A stretch of DNA of 34,489 bases from a virus (taxonomy: Duplodnaviria > Heunggongvirae > Uroviricota > Caudoviricetes): positions 1 through 34,489 of IMG/VR virus record IMGVR_UViG_2671180921_000023; one strand, written 5' to 3'. Made by a program: the position numbers and the translations under genes. Numbering within the stretch: position 1 is the stretch's first letter; the number at the start of each line of letters is the position of its first letter. Positions 25,715 to 32,884 of this stretch are shown piece after piece. The notes below the pieces were generated by a model. The model saw only the letters and a program-made list of their open reading frames with translations. It was not told the DNA's origin and searched no databases.

Positions 25715-25827
25715 TTTACGGGATTCTGAAATCCCGTTTTTGCCTGTTTTGTGCGCGCTTCATATATCGCTGCGCGTTTTTTGCTCATTTACGGGATTCG
25801 TGAGTCCCGTTTCTGTCTGTTTTTTGT
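25715..25827. repeat. Two 40-bp direct repeats, each a hairpin plus T-run; candidate parC centromere/promoter or origin-associated element
   Basis: Copy 1 at 25715-25753 (intergenic, upstream of parM); copy 2 at 25788-25827 (inside the last codons of gene A). Each has an ACGGGATT-type 8-bp stem. Confidence 0.5.
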
Positions 25828-28600
25828 TTCCGCTGGTCAGGCCACCCCGCAGCAGGTCTGCTTTGCGGCTGGCGCGTTCAGTGGTTTCACTGATTCTCTG
25901 TGCGTGCTCTGCGTCGCGGATGGCGCGCAGCATGTCAGAAAGCACGGTAACGGGTGTTTTCATGGTGTTCTGGTCCTGCTGAAGTGTGGATGCCAGGCGT
26001 GCGGCGGCTTCAGGGTCTGATGCCCCCAGCTGTGCCAGATAGCTGGCGACCGGGTTATGGCGGATCTCCGTGCTGCTTACGCCATGATTACGGCTCAGGC
26101 GCTGCCAGAGCTGCGTGATTCGGCTGTCCGGGCGGGTATCCGGTTTGCGTACAATTTCAAATCCCTGCGGTGCAATGATGCTGCCGTCAACGTACAGACT
26201 GCCGCCCCGTAACAGGTGCTGCATCTGTTGTTCACCGATATGCAGGCCGAGAGATTCAGCAGACTCCCGCCATTCTTTAGCGAGTAATTCGTGGTTATCA
26301 GGCAAAGGCCGCTGCTGTTTGCGGCTCTGTGTCCAGCTCTGCATTTCATCACTGCTGTTTTTTGCCTGTTTGTCACGAAGCGAACGCATCAGCGCCCGGC
26401 GTTCGTGCCGTTTCAGTGAGCGCATCCATTCGTTCACTTCAACGCCGTCAGGGAGCTGCGGCCACGGTGCTGGCCGTTCTTCCGGCTGTTCTGTCCCGTT
26501 GTTGTCCGTTTCCTGTACACGGGGACAGTTATTGCCACGAGTCCAAGGGGCGGCAGGGCCGCCCTGAAGGTCAAAACCATTTTCGCGGGAGCTGTCTTCC
26601 GCTTCCGGTTTACGTCTTACCAGCTTCCAGTTATCCGGGTGCGTGCACACACGGGAGGATTCCCCGATGAGTGGTGACCAGATCCCGTAAATCTGTACAC
26701 TCTGTTCGCCGTAATCGTTCAGCTCATCTGCGAGGTCGTAGGCGGTGCGAATCAGGTAGTCTTTACGTGGAACAAGTACTCCGCCCTGTTTCTCAATGTA
26801 GGTGGCAAAACATCCGGCATCAGCGGCAGCAAGAACCGCATCCATTGCGTCATCCTTCAGCCGTTGTGGGCCTTCCGGGTTGCGTGCCATCTGGCTGGCA
26901 AGGCGGCGCAGTTCACGCCATACCTGACGGGAGGGGATACCAAAGAACTGGAACTGGCGGACCCGGTGAAGGCGCGCCCAGCCGATGGCGCGCTCCACGC
27001 TCTCGGCCATTGATTTTCCGGTTTCGTGGTCAACGCGTGGCTTGCCCGTTTTCGGGTCGATGCCATCCACGGCGCGGCTATCCAGGTTCTTTCCGATGTA
27101 GGTGGCGATGTAGCTGGTTGGCGTGCCTTTCGAACCGTCGACGTACTCTGCCTTAAAGCGCGGAGTAATATCATTGCCCAGCTCGTGGCGGTCTTCCTGA
27201 ATGGCAATATCGCAGACGTGGGACACGATGGTTTCAATCTCGTCCGGATGTGCAAAGACCATCATATGCCAGTGCACCGTGCCGTCATGGTGAGGCTCCA
27301 CCGTGCGGATGCCATACCAGCGCAGACCGTCGCGGTTCAGTTTTTTGCGGACCGCCGCAAAAAACGTGTTAACCAGGTAATCGCTGGAGTCGCGCATGGT
27401 GGCTCCGTTCCATTTGGGGTTCGGATGACCGTTCTCCGTTGTTGCGTGGTATTTTGACGGGCAGGTGACAGTCAGAAACACCGCTCTGTCGCCACGGGCT
27501 TCGGCCAGAAGTTCCAGCCCCTTCATGGTGGCCATCATTTCTGCCTTACGGTGAACCGGGTTACTTACTCCCGCGTAATACACTGTCTCGAGATCAATCG
27601 TGAACCCGTCTTCATTTTCCAGCATGAAACTTTTCAGGAAATCGCGTGTTTTCTCGCGCTGTGCGCGAAACTCGCTTAACGCGTCCTGGCTCAGATAGGG
27701 TGATGTTTTTCTGGAAACCAGACAGGCGGCGCGGAGTTGTTCTTCTCTCCACTCGCAACGTAACAGCCACAGTTTGCGTTTCCACCATTCCGCACAGGTC
27801 AGGCGAAGGATTGCGCCCGGCAGCAGCTCCGTGTCCGGTTCGTTCCTCCGGTCTTTGTCTGTTGTCAGTGCGTCATAATGTGGAGGCATGGCGTGCAGGT
27901 GTAACGCCATGCGGGCCAGCATCTGATACGCCTTCAGCGTTACATCCATGGTCAGTTCGCCATCAGTAGCGCCAAAGCCATCGCAGAGTTTTTCGAAGGT
28001 GCTGCTGAACATCGCCGCCGTCATGGTGGCCAGCGTCTGTATCTGGTGTTTGTTGAGCTGCGGCAGGTAAAGCAAATCGTCCAGGCGTTCGCGTCCGGCA
28101 AGGGAGCGATAACCCGGTGTCAGCCAGCGGTGATCGGTGCGGTCCAGACGTTCGAATATTTTGCGCAGGGTTCCGCGCGCGTAGCGTTCAGCCTGCCAGC
28201 TCTTTTTGCCTTTCTGGCGATCGGCTTCCTGTTTTTTGCGCAGGAAAGAGAGGTGGCGGCTCAGAGGTTCACGCAGATAAACGGGAAGCACCTTCAGTGT
28301 GGCAAAAGCACGGGCCACCGGGTCTTGTTCTGTTGCCTGACGCTTGCTGATGATGCTTTGTGCCAGCTTTTCACGCTGTCCGGCTTCCTCAAGGGATGCC
28401 ATGAGTTTTTTACCCATGGCGGATTGTGCGAAAAAGGCTTCCTCCTTCGCTTCCTGTTCTTCCTGGGCCTTTTTGTCTGCCTCAAGGTAGTAACGGATGG
28501 CGCGTTGCAGGTCGGTTTCAGTTTCCTGCCTGCACTCCGTAAATCTGGCCGGATCAATGGCTGGCCGCGGTTCATTCCAGCTCCATGCAAACTCACTCAT
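25760..28600 (-). CDS. A: Replication initiation protein gpA (rolling-circle HUH endonuclease)
   Basis: About 946 aa, P2 gpA-like with HUH motif (VHWHMMVF). Start at ATG 28600 overlaps the upstream stop (ATGA coupling). Confidence 0.85.
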   Translation of the reverse strand: MSEFAWSWNEPRPAIDPARFTECRQETETDLQRAIRYYLEADKKAQEEQEAKEEAFFAQSAMGKKLMASLEEAGQREKLAQSIISKRQATEQDPVARAFATLKVLPVYLREPLSRHLSFLRKKQEADRQKGKKSWQAERYARGTLRKIFERLDRTDHRWLTPGYRSLAGRERLDDLLYLPQLNKHQIQTLATMTAAMFSSTFEKLCDGFGATDGELTMDVTLKAYQMLARMALHLHAMPPHYDALTTDKDRRNEPDTELLPGAILRLTCAEWWKRKLWLLRCEWREEQLRAACLVSRKTSPYLSQDALSEFRAQREKTRDFLKSFMLENEDGFTIDLETVYYAGVSNPVHRKAEMMATMKGLELLAEARGDRAVFLTVTCPSKYHATTENGHPNPKWNGATMRDSSDYLVNTFFAAVRKKLNRDGLRWYGIRTVEPHHDGTVHWHMMVFAHPDEIETIVSHVCDIAIQEDRHELGNDITPRFKAEYVDGSKGTPTSYIATYIGKNLDSRAVDGIDPKTGKPRVDHETGKSMAESVERAIGWARLHRVRQFQFFGIPSRQVWRELRRLASQMARNPEGPQRLKDDAMDAVLAAADAGCFATYIEKQGGVLVPRKDYLIRTAYDLADELNDYGEQSVQIYGIWSPLIGESSRVCTHPDNWKLVRRKPEAEDSSRENGFDLQGGPAAPWTRGNNCPRVQETDNNGTEQPEERPAPWPQLPDGVEVNEWMRSLKRHERRALMRSLRDKQAKNSSDEMQSWTQSRKQQRPLPDNHELLAKEWRESAESLGLHIGEQQMQHLLRGGSLYVDGSIIAPQGFEIVRKPDTRPDSRITQLWQRLSRNHGVSSTEIRHNPVASYLAQLGASDPEAAARLASTLQQDQNTMKTPVTVLSDMLRAIRDAEHAQRISETTERASRKADLLRGGLTSGNKKQTETGLTNPVNEQKTRSDI

Positions 28601-29016
28601 GGCTGGTATCCCGTCACGCGCTGCCACTCCTGCGAGAAGAGGGTGGAAAGGCGGTTAAACTCAGCGGTGTATTCACTCAGCGAGGCACACCCGCCAGCAG
28701 TGTGATGCGCCAGCATTGCCGCAAATACGGAGGCCGGGGAGTCGTAATACGCCAGCAGTGATTCGCCGTGTGGTGTCAGGCAGTGCAACGCCAGCCCGTG
28801 TGGTGTCAGGCAGTGCAACGCCAGCCCGTGTGGTGTGAAGTCCACGCGGTAGCAGTCGTCTACTGTGAAATAAAGGGTGTCCGCATTCTCCGGTTTTGTG
28901 GTGCGTGCTCTGTTGTCACGACCGCGGATGTAGAGATCAAATAATCCCTGAAGAACGGGAGCCAGACGGGTGTCCTGTGTGCGCACCCATCTTGTGAAGT
29001 CATGAGCGTCAATCAT
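28597..29016 (-). CDS. Hypothetical early protein (139 aa) with an internal in-frame tandem duplication
   Basis: Protein repeat TPHGLALHCL x2 plus a partial third, encoded by a perfect 30-bp tandem repeat; translationally coupled to A. Confidence 0.5.
   Translation of the reverse strand: MIDAHDFTRWVRTQDTRLAPVLQGLFDLYIRGRDNRARTTKPENADTLYFTVDDCYRVDFTPHGLALHCLTPHGLALHCLTPHGESLLAYYDSPASVFAAMLAHHTAGGCASLSEYTAEFNRLSTLFSQEWQRVTGYQP
28767..28836. repeat. Perfect 30-bp tandem direct repeat (2 full copies plus a 10-bp partial) inside a CDS
   Basis: cgtgtggtgtcaggcagtgcaacgccagcc repeated at 28767-28796 and 28797-28826, then cgtgtggtgt. Confidence 0.9.
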
Positions 29017-29088
29017 GCTGCAATTCTCTTTACTACAGATGTGCGAAGGCCTCCCGCCGCAAGGTGCAGGAAAGGCCCGGAACAGGAA

Positions 29089-29319
29089 TTAATGGAGTTT
29101 GTTTTGCTGCTGGATGAGATCCTGAAGAGACAGGAGGTCTTCCGCCAGATAGCTGAATACAGCGGCGCAGTAGTCGGCTGAAATAGTGCTGTTGAGTCTG
29201 TGCAATGTGTTGGATTGCATGATAAAAGCGATGTGTGCAGCGCGGGTGAGTCTGCGGTTGATTTCAGTCTGGATGTGACGACGCTCCGCGATAGCGCGGT
29301 GCTGTTTGCGGTTTGCCAT
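29089..29319 (-). CDS. Hypothetical early protein (76 aa)
   Basis: Helical-looking basic small ORF; preferred over the overlapping low-complexity 205-aa ORF in another frame. Confidence 0.4.
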   Translation of the reverse strand: MANRKQHRAIAERRHIQTEINRRLTRAAHIAFIMQSNTLHRLNSTISADYCAAVFSYLAEDLLSLQDLIQQQNKLH

Positions 29320-29496
29320 GATGTGGCCTCTTTGGTTGTAAGTTTTGAAAACTCACCATCCAGAGCTGCGAAACTGTGGGTGGCGAGACGTACGAGGTTC
29401 GCAGTACCGGCAACCAAAGAACCCGGCCCGACCGAAGTCGGCCCCGTACGTCCCGCCATAATTCGTGTGCGAAAAAGACGTGGCAATACAGTACGC

Positions 29497-29520
29497 ACAA
29501 AAAAACCGCTGGCGCGGTTG
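29497..29520 (-). terminator. Putative intrinsic terminator/attenuator inside the early operon
   Basis: Minus-strand hairpin aaccgc-gcca-gcggtt followed by 7 T; lies in a 320-bp non-coding gap. Confidence 0.35.
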
Positions 29521-29639
29521 TGTGCTTTGGTTGTCAGCAGGCTGCGAAACCCGGCATCCGTTTTATGAGATGCAGCGGAAATGTAACCTGACTGATTGCG
29601 GCATGGCAAGCGGTTTTTTTGTGTGTACATAGTGGTTAC

Positions 29640-30191
29640 TCAGTCCGGTAGTAGTTCGCAAAGCACGGTATCAGCGGCGGTATATCGTGCGTAAAGCCTG
29701 GCGGGGACCCATCTTTTAAGGGATATCCCGGTCGTGTCCCGGATGTGCTTCCTGATTTCGCTGAATGTCATCCCCTTCTCATCACGCAGTTCAGTTACCA
29801 GCTCCACCAGGTGATCGCTGTATCTGGTTCTGTGGTGGAGTTCCCCGTATTTCCTGAACCGATACCCTCTTTTTCTCAGGTTCAGTTCTACCGTGGATGG
29901 CGAGCGCCCCAGCTCATTCGCGAGTTCCCGGATGGTTTTTGTGTGGCGATTCCTGATGAGCATGCTGAGTTCTTTTGTACTCAGTGGAGTTTGTTTGGCG
30001 TGAATAATCCCCTGAGAGAGCAAAAGACGGATGCGGCTTCGTATTGCTGACTCGGTTCTCTGAAAGTGCTTTGTCAGCTCCGGCGCTGTGTGGGAGTGGT
30101 ATAACGTGGCTAAAAGTTCATCCTCCTGCTGTGTCCATGGCTTTACATGTGCCGGAGCCACACCAGGCGTACCCATTGGTTTGAGTTTCAT
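29640..30191 (-). CDS. Multi-helix-turn-helix DNA-binding early protein (183 aa)
   Basis: Three HTH-like segments (for example LSTKELSMLIRNRHTKTIRELANELGRSPSTV); function unknown, possibly replication or regulation. Confidence 0.5.
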   Translation of the reverse strand: MKLKPMGTPGVAPAHVKPWTQQEDELLATLYHSHTAPELTKHFQRTESAIRSRIRLLLSQGIIHAKQTPLSTKELSMLIRNRHTKTIRELANELGRSPSTVELNLRKRGYRFRKYGELHHRTRYSDHLVELVTELRDEKGMTFSEIRKHIRDTTGISLKRWVPARLYARYTAADTVLCELLPD

Positions 30192-30205
30192 TGTGATTTA
30201 CTCCC

Positions 30206-30505
30206 TTACTGGTTAAGGAAAAAATCGAAAACGTTGTCGATGCGTTGCAGCAGCTCCTGCTGCATCGCTTCCGGCGTTTCTGATTCACCTGGTGACTCCA
30301 GCGGTGCGCAGAAATCCTTGATTTCATGATGGAGCGTCAGGCGAATGGCAGGAGCCATGGTTCTGGCGTGCTCCAGCTCATCCAGAAGCGCCAGCACGGC
30401 AGACGGCGAGAGCATTGCGCAAAACGCCAGTAATTTTTGATGTGTTGCCATTCGTTGCAGGTCAGTCGCCAGTTCGCGTAATTTCTGGTGGTTGATGGTG
30501 CTCAT
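30206..30505 (-). CDS. Hypothetical early protein (99 aa)
   Basis: Contains PSAVLALLDE, shared with the 179-aa accessory protein; 4-nt overlap with the upstream gene. Confidence 0.45.
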   Translation of the reverse strand: MSTINHQKLRELATDLQRMATHQKLLAFCAMLSPSAVLALLDELEHARTMAPAIRLTLHHEIKDFCAPLESPGESETPEAMQQELLQRIDNVFDFFLNQ

Positions 30506-30741
30506 GCTCTGGCTTCCTTCAGTAGCTGGTTAAACATGTGGGTTAGTGGGTTGCCACACCCGAACGGCAGCGTGTTCACCTCGTAGCAAAACTCCGATGC
30601 GCGTTCTTTCCTGTTAACGTGACCATCGCTCCAGAGTTGGCGTAGCCCTCTAGTGATAACTTGTTTTGGCATATTCAATGCGGCTGCAATCTCGCTACTG
30701 GTGCATCCCGGATGGGCTGCGATGTAGTCCAGAATGGTCAT
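30502..30741 (-). CDS. Small winged-helix-like DNA-binding protein (79 aa)
   Basis: MTILDYIAAHPGCTSSEIAAALNMPKQVITRGLRQL resembles a wH/HTH recognition module. Confidence 0.45.
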   Translation of the reverse strand: MTILDYIAAHPGCTSSEIAAALNMPKQVITRGLRQLWSDGHVNRKERASEFCYEVNTLPFGCGNPLTHMFNQLLKEARA

Positions 30742-32584: not shown

Positions 32585-32884
32585 ATGTCAACTACCGTAG
32601 CTATGAAAATTCGCATCATGCGGAAGTCAGAAATGCTTACGCAAGAAAAAATGGCAGAGATTACTGGGCTTACTCTTGCTGCATTAAGGCAATATGAGCA
32701 AGGACGAAATGAACCCAACCTTGAGTCAACAAAAAAGCTTCTGAAAGCTCCCATGTTCCGTAAGTACCGCGACTGGTTTCTGTTTGATGAAGTTGACCCC
32801 AAGGCCGGGCAGGTTGTGCCGGCTCTCGCACACATTGGGCAAGGCGAAGCGGAATTATCCCGCTCCGGCAAGAAAACTGGTTAA
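32585..32884 (+). CDS. C: P2 C-type immunity repressor
   Basis: 99 aa; IMRKSE ... PALAH ... GQ ... SGKKTG pattern and length match P2 C; position upstream of int. Confidence 0.8.
   Translation: MSTTVAMKIRIMRKSEMLTQEKMAEITGLTLAALRQYEQGRNEPNLESTKKLLKAPMFRKYRDWFLFDEVDPKAGQVVPALAHIGQGEAELSRSGKKTG

Follow-up and report, generated by a model that had tools for sequence, protein, structure and literature searches.

Introduction

Antisense RNAs of the C4 class are stable molecules of about 77 nt, cut from longer transcripts with a 5' end generated by RNase P, that repress translation and exert Rho-dependent polarity on the genes downstream. In phages P1 and P7, c4 blocks ant synthesis around the ribosome-binding site, and compensatory changes in the a and b boxes are the basis of P1/P7 heteroimmunity (reviewed in PMC12197685). 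In phage P4, the RNA prevents expression of the replication genes via premature termination (summarized in PMC4825925). In Gifsy-1 of Salmonella, IsrK occurs in two forms, a short terminated RNA and a read-through mRNA, the former activating downstream translation in trans (Hershko-Shalev et al., PMC4825925). The same study likens IsrK to P4 SeqA and the processed downstream RNA STnc1160 to CI, and it is for the Salmonella RNA that Hfq binding by IsrK and activation in trans are experimental properties (PMC4825925). This article describes a 320-bp gap in the early operon of a P2-like prophage, the 34,489-nt IMG/VR record IMGVR_UViG_2671180921_000023 (the whole of which is referred to here as the window), that is very probably a cassette for RNA-based immunity and for control of an anti-repressor, of the type known from P1 immI, P4 immunity, and Gifsy-1 isrK.

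The window belongs to the P88 group of P2-like prophages (Xuanwuvirus, Peduoviridae); its right-hand 10 kb is 94% identical to phage P88 over 76% of the query, and phages phiSM, PhiR44_2, and P884B11 also match. The early operon lies on the minus strand and runs from a Cox-like gene, which adjoins the C repressor gene (32585-32884) and the integrase gene, down to replication gene A. The gap (29320-29639, minus strand as sense) separates the stop codon of a gene for a 183-amino-acid (183-aa) helix-turn-helix (HTH) protein from the ATG (29319) of a 76-aa gene. A preliminary description, made from the sequence, had remarked on this stretch as poor in open reading frames (ORFs), had noted two hairpins within it, and had proposed an attenuator gating replication gene expression or a small RNA locus. 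The gap is confirmed to be free of any credible protein gene, although the term ORF-poor needs the qualification that a mechanical 205-aa ORF (29630..29013, minus strand) crosses it, without a coding signature where this is testable.

Small RNA genes in the gap

When the whole window was scanned with Rfam at gathering thresholds, exactly two matches were returned, both on the minus strand within the gap and both far above threshold. The covariance-model search proposed in the preliminary description thereby bore out its suggestion of a small RNA locus, the gap carrying two catalogued small-RNA genes, isrK and C4. A scan of the window for tRNA and tmRNA genes found none. The identity of the two RNAs appears as good as certain, because the Rfam scores lie well clear of the gathering thresholds, the models also match the experimentally defined cI and seqA regions of P4 (and the C4 model c4 of P1), and the C4 structure covaries among homologues.

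The isrK model (RF01394) matches 29573..29499 at 64.7 bits (gathering score 50; E = 8e-12), and the small RNA gene is placed at 29497..29573 on the minus strand, the equivalent of the a1b1 leader of P1 c4 and of the seqA region of P4. Read from 29573 to 29497, it comprises a 5' hairpin, box a1, box b1, a terminator stem (29519..29504), and a U7 tract (29503..29497). The first hairpin of the preliminary description, AACCGC-GCCA-GCGGTT on the minus strand followed by seven T, is present at these last positions and was reported by a terminator scan, which returned nine terminator-like sites in 28500-30600 compared with 2.3 +/- 1.5 in shuffled sequences. With its 6-bp stem and U7 tract, it is the predicted terminator of IsrK. 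The earlier proposal of an attenuator thus captured the terminator itself, but the element forms the 3' end of a small RNA that has a promoter-like site of its own inside the gap, and it is thus more than a simple attenuator in the early operon. Taken by itself, IsrK folds with an unremarkable energy (z = -1.07), and it is identified by its covariance-model match, its terminator, and its boxes. In the window, the related c4-a1b1 model (RF03163) stays below its gathering score, while in P1 it reaches 51 bits against 46.7.

A candidate isrK promoter lies at 29580..29620 (minus strand) and consists of an A7 tract (29620..29614), a -35 hexamer TTGCCA (29609..29604), an 18-nt spacer, and a -10 hexamer TACATT (29585..29580), in a match to the consensus. 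In the promoter scan, its -10 hexamer ends 6 nt before the first isrK base (29573). The -35 and -10 hexamers, like the IsrK terminator, show almost no variation in 82 related cassettes, and lambdoid copies have other hexamers in equivalent placement (TTGATT-17-TACACT and TTGACT-17-TATATT).

The C4 model (RF01695) matches over its full length (1-87) at 85.1 bits (gathering score 45; E = 1.3e-15), with the gene spanning 29376..29463 on the minus strand as delimited by the model; if the P1 annotation is taken as a guide, the mature RNA would extend over approximately 29457..29379. Its layout is that of a 17-bp closing stem, an inner UUCG hairpin (29428-29441), a second hairpin with a 12-nt loop, and a single-stranded junction. 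The second hairpin of the preliminary description, ccgac-cgaa-gtcgg, is present at 29428-29441 but is not a separate element, being the inner UUCG stem-loop of C4. The minimum free energy (MFE) of C4 is -47.4 kcal/mol (z = -4.6), a value matched by none of 200 shuffles, and the MFE fold is the Rfam consensus. In an alignment of nine diverse homologues (the window, P88, phiSM, PhiR44_2, three lambdoid phages, P4 CI, and P1 c4), 98.8% of the cells are paired and both sides have changed in 15 of the 27 pairs; these values were reached by none of 500 shuffles, and slid controls gave 33-45% paired. The closing stem is followed by ACC and resembles the acceptor end of a tRNA.

A further complementarity involves the leader of the 76-aa gene, in which the segment UGGUGAG (29358..29352), just after box a2, is complementary, with one G-U pair, to CUCGCCA (29381-29387) in the 3' strand of the stem that closes C4. 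In the lambdoid copies the complementarity extends to 11 nt and is perfect, and a similar segment is found in P1. It may represent an alternative pairing that competes with the folding or processing of C4.

Pairing boxes and the epsilon-like target gene

Six short boxes, all read on the minus strand, connect the two RNAs with the leader of the 76-aa gene. C4 contains box b' (CUUUGGUUG, 29419..29411), which lies in the 12-nt loop of its second hairpin, and box a' (CUGCGAA, 29404..29398), which lies in the single-stranded junction. IsrK contains box a1 (UUCGCAG, 29548..29542) and box b1 (CAACCAAAG, 29533..29525), and the leader of the 76-aa gene contains box a2 (UUCGCAG, 29372..29366) and box b2 (CAACCAAAGA, 29338..29329), the latter overlapping the Shine-Dalgarno sequence AAGAGG of that gene (29332..29327). 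Boxes a' and b' are exactly complementary to a1 and b1 and to a2 and b2, over 7 nt and 9-10 nt, respectively.

Within C4, the probability of being unpaired is 0.81 for b' and 0.91 for a', compared with 0.26 for the rest of the molecule, and the calculated duplex energies are -10.5 kcal/mol for a':a2 and -15.9 kcal/mol for b':b2, with -12.0 and -12.5 kcal/mol for a1 and b1 of IsrK. Three matches to the composite motif TTCGCAG-N(5-35)-CAACCAAAG are found in the 34.5 kb of the window, all of them in the gap: the two target copies and, within C4, the antisense copy. None of 100 shuffles contained any. Whole-molecule RNAduplex comparisons of C4 with the leader or with IsrK gave a weak signal, equalled by 8 and 3 of 300 shuffles, respectively, because the method unfolds C4, and the box-level duplexes together with accessibility are the meaningful numbers. 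Pairing of C4 with both partners is thus indicated by the exact complementarity, the confinement of the composite motif to the gap, the unpaired state of a' and b', the position of b2 on the Shine-Dalgarno sequence, and a layout like that of P1, and it is highly likely, by analogy with the homologous systems, that C4 controls translation of the 76-aa gene.

The 76-aa gene (29089..29319, minus strand) encodes a probable homologue of the epsilon (helper derepression) protein of phage P4, to which it is 29% identical over 66 of its 76 residues (pairwise BLASTP, E = 2e-8). It also matches PHROG 3688 (E = 5e-38), and its counterpart in P88 is annotated as a derepression protein.

Covariation across related cassettes

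The first six related loci retrieved, of which two are P88-like and four lambdoid, all carry the tandem of isrK and C4, and a scan of IMG/VR with the 76-aa protein yielded 80 loci, every one of which has the cassette. The resulting alignment of 82 cassettes (57 distinct) has a mean column entropy of 0.77 bits in the six boxes and 0.18 bits outside them, and in P88-like phages the cassette is nearly identical outside the boxes, whereas the boxes differ with all copies changing together. P88, for example, combines a' GUGGAAA with a1 and a2 UUUCCAC, and b' CUGUAGUUG with b1 and b2 CAACUACAG; box a' is GUUCCAA in phiSM, and box b' is CUUGUGUAG in PhiR44_2. Among the 82 loci, five a' and 13 b' variants make up 17 (a', b') specificities. 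Complementarity is perfect at all four sites in 65 loci and nearly so in the remainder, and only 1 of 272 non-self combinations has a full match in a and at least 8 of 9 positions in b. As judged from these alignments, the co-variation of the boxes is the signature of a functional, specificity-determining RNA-RNA interaction, and the conservation analysis proposed in the preliminary description accordingly revealed both a covarying C4 structure and co-evolving boxes across related cassettes. In genomes with two cassettes, the specificities differ in four of four pairs, but the comparison is uninformative, since a difference is seen in 92% of random pairs as well. In phage Chuche, a close relative, the entire cassette is missing; together with the variable gene upstream of it, this absence indicates that the cassette behaves as an accessory module.

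Two cassettes depart from these patterns. In one IMG/VR locus (L024), b' CUGUAGUUG fits its own b1 and b2 (CAACCAAAG) at only 7 of 9 positions, and in another (L035) a1 is mismatched (5/7); both look like recombinants between specificity types and are possibly derepressed variants. The a' box of Stx2a_1447 (UUUCCAC; L003, 2607-2694) is the exact reverse complement of that of P88 (GUGGAAA; L002, 4366-4453), and a' of VT2phi_272 (GUGAGAA; L005, 2600-2687) is the reverse complement of that of P4 CI (UUCUCAC; L007, 8420-8507). Such relationships could mean that some C4 RNAs pair with each other, or that specificity switches by swapping the strands of a pair.

Proposed mechanism

In the mechanism proposed here, the promoter-like site would drive a transcript that starts with IsrK and ends at the intrinsic terminator, and read-through would continue into C4, a tRNA-like three-helix RNA predicted to expose b' in a loop and a' in the junction. 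As in the homologous systems, C4 would be released from the read-through transcript, RNase P generating its 5' end, and would pair with a2 and b2 to block translation of the epsilon-like gene; the untranslated RNA would then be prone to Rho-dependent termination, with less transcription of the 139-aa ORF and of gene A that lie downstream. The short IsrK, carrying the same boxes as the mRNA target, would serve as a decoy for C4 and, by titrating it, would switch on translation, an effect that IsrK exerts in trans in Gifsy-1. Since the a and b boxes are hypervariable and co-evolving, they would set the specificity of immunity in trans between related phages, independently of repressor C.

The gating of replication gene expression, which the preliminary description had envisaged, is plausible by inference because A lies downstream with no consensus-like promoter in between and because the homologous P4 RNA gates a replication gene. 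The target with direct support is, nevertheless, the ribosome-binding site of the epsilon-like gene and not A, and regulation of A by the cassette is a possibility that we would place slightly short of even.

Several points weigh against this interpretation. Promoter activity, processing, translational block, and Rho polarity are all ascribed to the window by inference from related systems, and the 76-aa product is a putative epsilon-type derepression protein, its function being assigned by homology; its score against the Pfam family Derepression (PF25738) is 23.2 bits, which falls short of the cut-off of 27. Lytic growth depends on gene A, so that a permanent gating by C4 would require an escape route, for which the IsrK decoy is proposed. 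In Gifsy-1, moreover, regulation has been explained by a translated upstream ORF, orf45, that overlaps the C4-like RNA, and by alternative structures, not by masking of a downstream ribosome-binding site (PMC4825925). Finally, the window and P88 have C repressors that are 98% identical, with epsilon proteins only 72% identical and differing a and b boxes, while the window and E. coli NZ_OZ039818 share their boxes and have epsilon proteins that are 99% identical, with C repressors only 34% identical.

C repressor type, epsilon allele, and box type assort independently. The idea that the epsilon-like protein is an anti-repressor directed specifically at the repressor of its own phage is unsupported, since in a comparison of three phages the epsilon allele did not follow the C type of the phage that carries it.

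Alternative explanations

Three other accounts of the gap were considered. The simplest is that the hairpin and its seven T partly terminate early-operon transcripts before A, with no trans-acting RNA involved. A sense-strand hairpin of this kind does sit between the early genes and A, and when 28500-30600 was scanned, no consensus-like sigma-70 promoter emerged between C4 and A, or between the hairpin and A, yet such an attenuator would leave unexplained the promoter-like site 6 nt before the 5' end of isrK, whose position is conserved in relatives, as well as the 88-nt covarying structure of C4, the co-evolving boxes, and the Rfam matches; it is therefore judged extremely improbable. Hardly more credible is the view that conservation of the gap reflects constraint on an encoded 'Ash family' protein, specified by the 205-aa ORF (29630..29013) or by a shorter ORF from an AUG in C4 (29459). 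This frame is open over 618 nt in six of six P88-like phages compared, Pfam Phage_ASH (PF10554) matches at 28.8 bits against a cut-off of 26, several PHROG families labelled as transcriptional regulators or repressors match as well, PGAP applies the label 'ash family protein', and other annotators call the 618-nt ORF a gene; in Gifsy-1, orf45 was tagged for detection by western blotting, and start-codon mutations or an added stop codon lowered downstream expression (PMC4825925). The Phage_ASH match, however, covers residues 16-108 of the 205-aa ORF, which are exactly the translated isrK and C4 DNA, and the PHROG matches, too, are confined to residues translated from the two RNA genes. P88 has no start codon for the ORF, the promoter-like site and the terminator both lie inside it, and variation is concentrated in the RNA pairing boxes, with changes that compensate one another in the RNA. 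Between the window and P88, in the overlap with the 76-aa gene, the 205-aa frame has 1 synonymous and 29 non-synonymous codon differences, whereas the 76-aa frame has 11 and 21, respectively, and it is on this substitution pattern that a protein-coding gap was rejected, despite the Pfam and PHROG matches.

More weight, though still not much, is given to a Gifsy-1-type arrangement, in which IsrK and C4 pair in cis to lock the read-through transcript in an inactive fold, short IsrK in trans opens a short ORF that starts in C4, downstream expression follows by translational coupling, and free C4 has only a minor antisense role. This model has experimental support at the homologous Salmonella locus (PMC4825925). 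It would fit the AUG in the 5' strand of the C4 stem, which is present in eight of the nine aligned homologues, P1 and the window included, and is shifted by one base in P4, and the complementarity between UGGUGAG and the C4 stem likewise hints at alternative folds. In the window, by contrast, the ORF from the C4 AUG is out of frame with the 76-aa gene and runs for 149 codons to 29013, so that coupling is not evident, and the co-evolution of b' with b2, which lies over the Shine-Dalgarno sequence of the epsilon-like gene, would be unexplained if only an internal ORF were regulated. On balance this arrangement is improbable as the main mode of action, but it and antisense control by C4 are not mutually exclusive and may operate alongside each other.

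Annotation of the gap is uneven in the databases. PGAP calls it an 'ash family protein' pseudogene, and in lambdoid phages the coding sequences of anti-repressors have been extended upstream across both RNAs. Translations of isrK and C4 DNA as protein were encountered in the window (29013-29630, minus strand) and at L001 4360-4620, L009 1501-2118, L011 1501-2118, and L003 2146-3297.

Genes flanking the cassette

Downstream of the epsilon-like gene, a conserved 72-nt spacer (29088..29017, minus strand) precedes the 139-aa ORF (29016..28597, minus strand), which is possibly affected by polarity, and replication gene A (28627..25760, minus strand; Pfam Phage_GPA, E = 1.9e-129). The spacer is nearly identical in the six P88-like phages compared, with one difference in its first 57 nt, in contrast to the flanking genes, which are strongly diverged alleles. 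It contains a 13-bp hairpin of unexceptional energy (z = -1.5) and may serve as a joint for recombination or as a signal for regulation or termination. The 139-aa ORF contains a perfect 30-bp tandem repeat (2.4 copies, 100% identical; 28766-28836) that adds HGLALHCLTP in frame, and PhiR44_2 has one copy fewer. Directly after gene A, P88-like phages encode a ParM-type plasmid segregation protein (L001, 1-808; L002, 1-735), and phiSM additionally has a partition/stability protein there; partition-type genes in this position are unusual for an integrating P2-like phage.

Upstream, the gene for the 183-aa HTH protein (29640..30191, minus strand) matches PHROG 323 ('transcriptional regulator, D5-like'), and an NCBIfam scan of the proteins neighboring the gap gave no useful match. 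The slot directly upstream of the cassette varies among relatives (window 29640-30191, minus strand; equivalents in L002 and L009). It is occupied by the 183-aa HTH protein in the window, phiSM, and NZ_OZ039818, by a lipoprotein/serine protease and a membrane protein in P88, and by nothing in PhiR44_2, and it may be a hotspot for accessory genes.

Implications for P2-like phages

P2-like phages are usually described as being under the control of the C/Cox protein switch alone. The present comparison indicates that a large P2-like subgroup carries an antisense-RNA cassette of the P1/P4 style between its early genes and replication gene A, and part of the 1.8 kb around the cassette (28500-30300) matches 1407 of 5426 complete E. 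coli genomes. Were the cassette to work as in P1 and P4, it would provide these phages with an added layer of RNA-specified immunity and a route of induction through the epsilon-like protein. Mitomycin C induces P88, and spontaneous release is known for phiSM. The cassette type is already known, but its context in a P2-like phage, upstream of an epsilon-like gene and A, was not found described in the literature searched, and publications on P88, phiSM, and P2-like diversity made no mention of an RNA cassette. In many records the cassette is unannotated, and elsewhere it is mistranslated as an 'Ash family protein', a 'transcriptional regulator', or an N-terminal extension of an anti-repressor; protein families built on cassette DNA should be treated with caution.

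A broader and speculative idea, to which we attach a low probability, is that P88-group phages and P4-like satellites share one homologous module of RNA immunity and epsilon, in which the boxes would act as a hypervariable barcode of at least 17 types (in 82 loci) under diversifying selection, unlinked to C type. Such a module would form a second layer of superinfection immunity that also gates A, and co-resident helpers, satellites, and lambdoid prophages with matching or complementary boxes might then silence or decoy one another.

Comparison with known systems

The P1 immI region, as annotated in its GenBank record, consists of the P1c4 promoter, a1, b1, c4, a2, b2, and icd, in the same order as in the window and with nearly equal spacing. 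P1 c4 matches the C4 model at 68.8 bits (85.1 bits for C4 of the window), and in both elements a hairpin and T-run follow b1, C4 and the start of a2 are 3-4 nt apart, and the end of b2 lies 9-10 nt from the start codon. The likeness to P1 and P7 extends to the predicted target, the ribosome-binding site of the gene that opens an anti-repressor operon, and to the way in which specificity changes, through compensatory alterations of the boxes. Unlike P1, where icd-ant lies downstream of c4, the window has the 76-aa epsilon-like protein in this position, with replication gene A further downstream in the same direction of transcription. P1 is a plasmid prophage with the C1 repressor, whereas the window is an integrated P2-like prophage with a C/Cox switch, and in place of the C1-controlled Op51/P51a of P1, the scan of the window revealed no second upstream promoter and no evident P1-type operator.

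In the immunity region of P4 (PLE-seqA-cI RNA-seqC ... epsilon-orf151-alpha), the C4 model matches cI RNA at 74.9 bits and the isrK model matches seqA at 60.8 bits. The next conserved protein gene is probably homologous, namely epsilon (E = 2e-8), and a replication gene lies further downstream, although it encodes the alpha primase in P4 and a P2-type GpA in the window. The arrangements differ in that about 250 nt, historically annotated as a 'cI' ORF, separate cI from epsilon in P4, whereas the epsilon-like gene of the window directly follows C4 and has b2 on its Shine-Dalgarno sequence. P4 orf151 is unrelated to the 139-aa ORF of the window, with no similarity detected between them, and P4 is without a protein repressor C, which the window element has.

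Lambdoid and Stx phages carry the isrK and C4 tandem with a promoter-like site directly upstream, at 70-72% DNA identity to the window. In these phages and in Gifsy-1 (isrK-orf45(STnc1160)-anrP), the genomic context is lambdoid and the downstream gene is an anti-repressor of the Rha/Ant type, not an epsilon-like gene. The tandem as such has precedent in current annotation, the Stx-phage record H136 already listing 'isrK Hfq binding RNA' and 'C4 antisense RNA' side by side.

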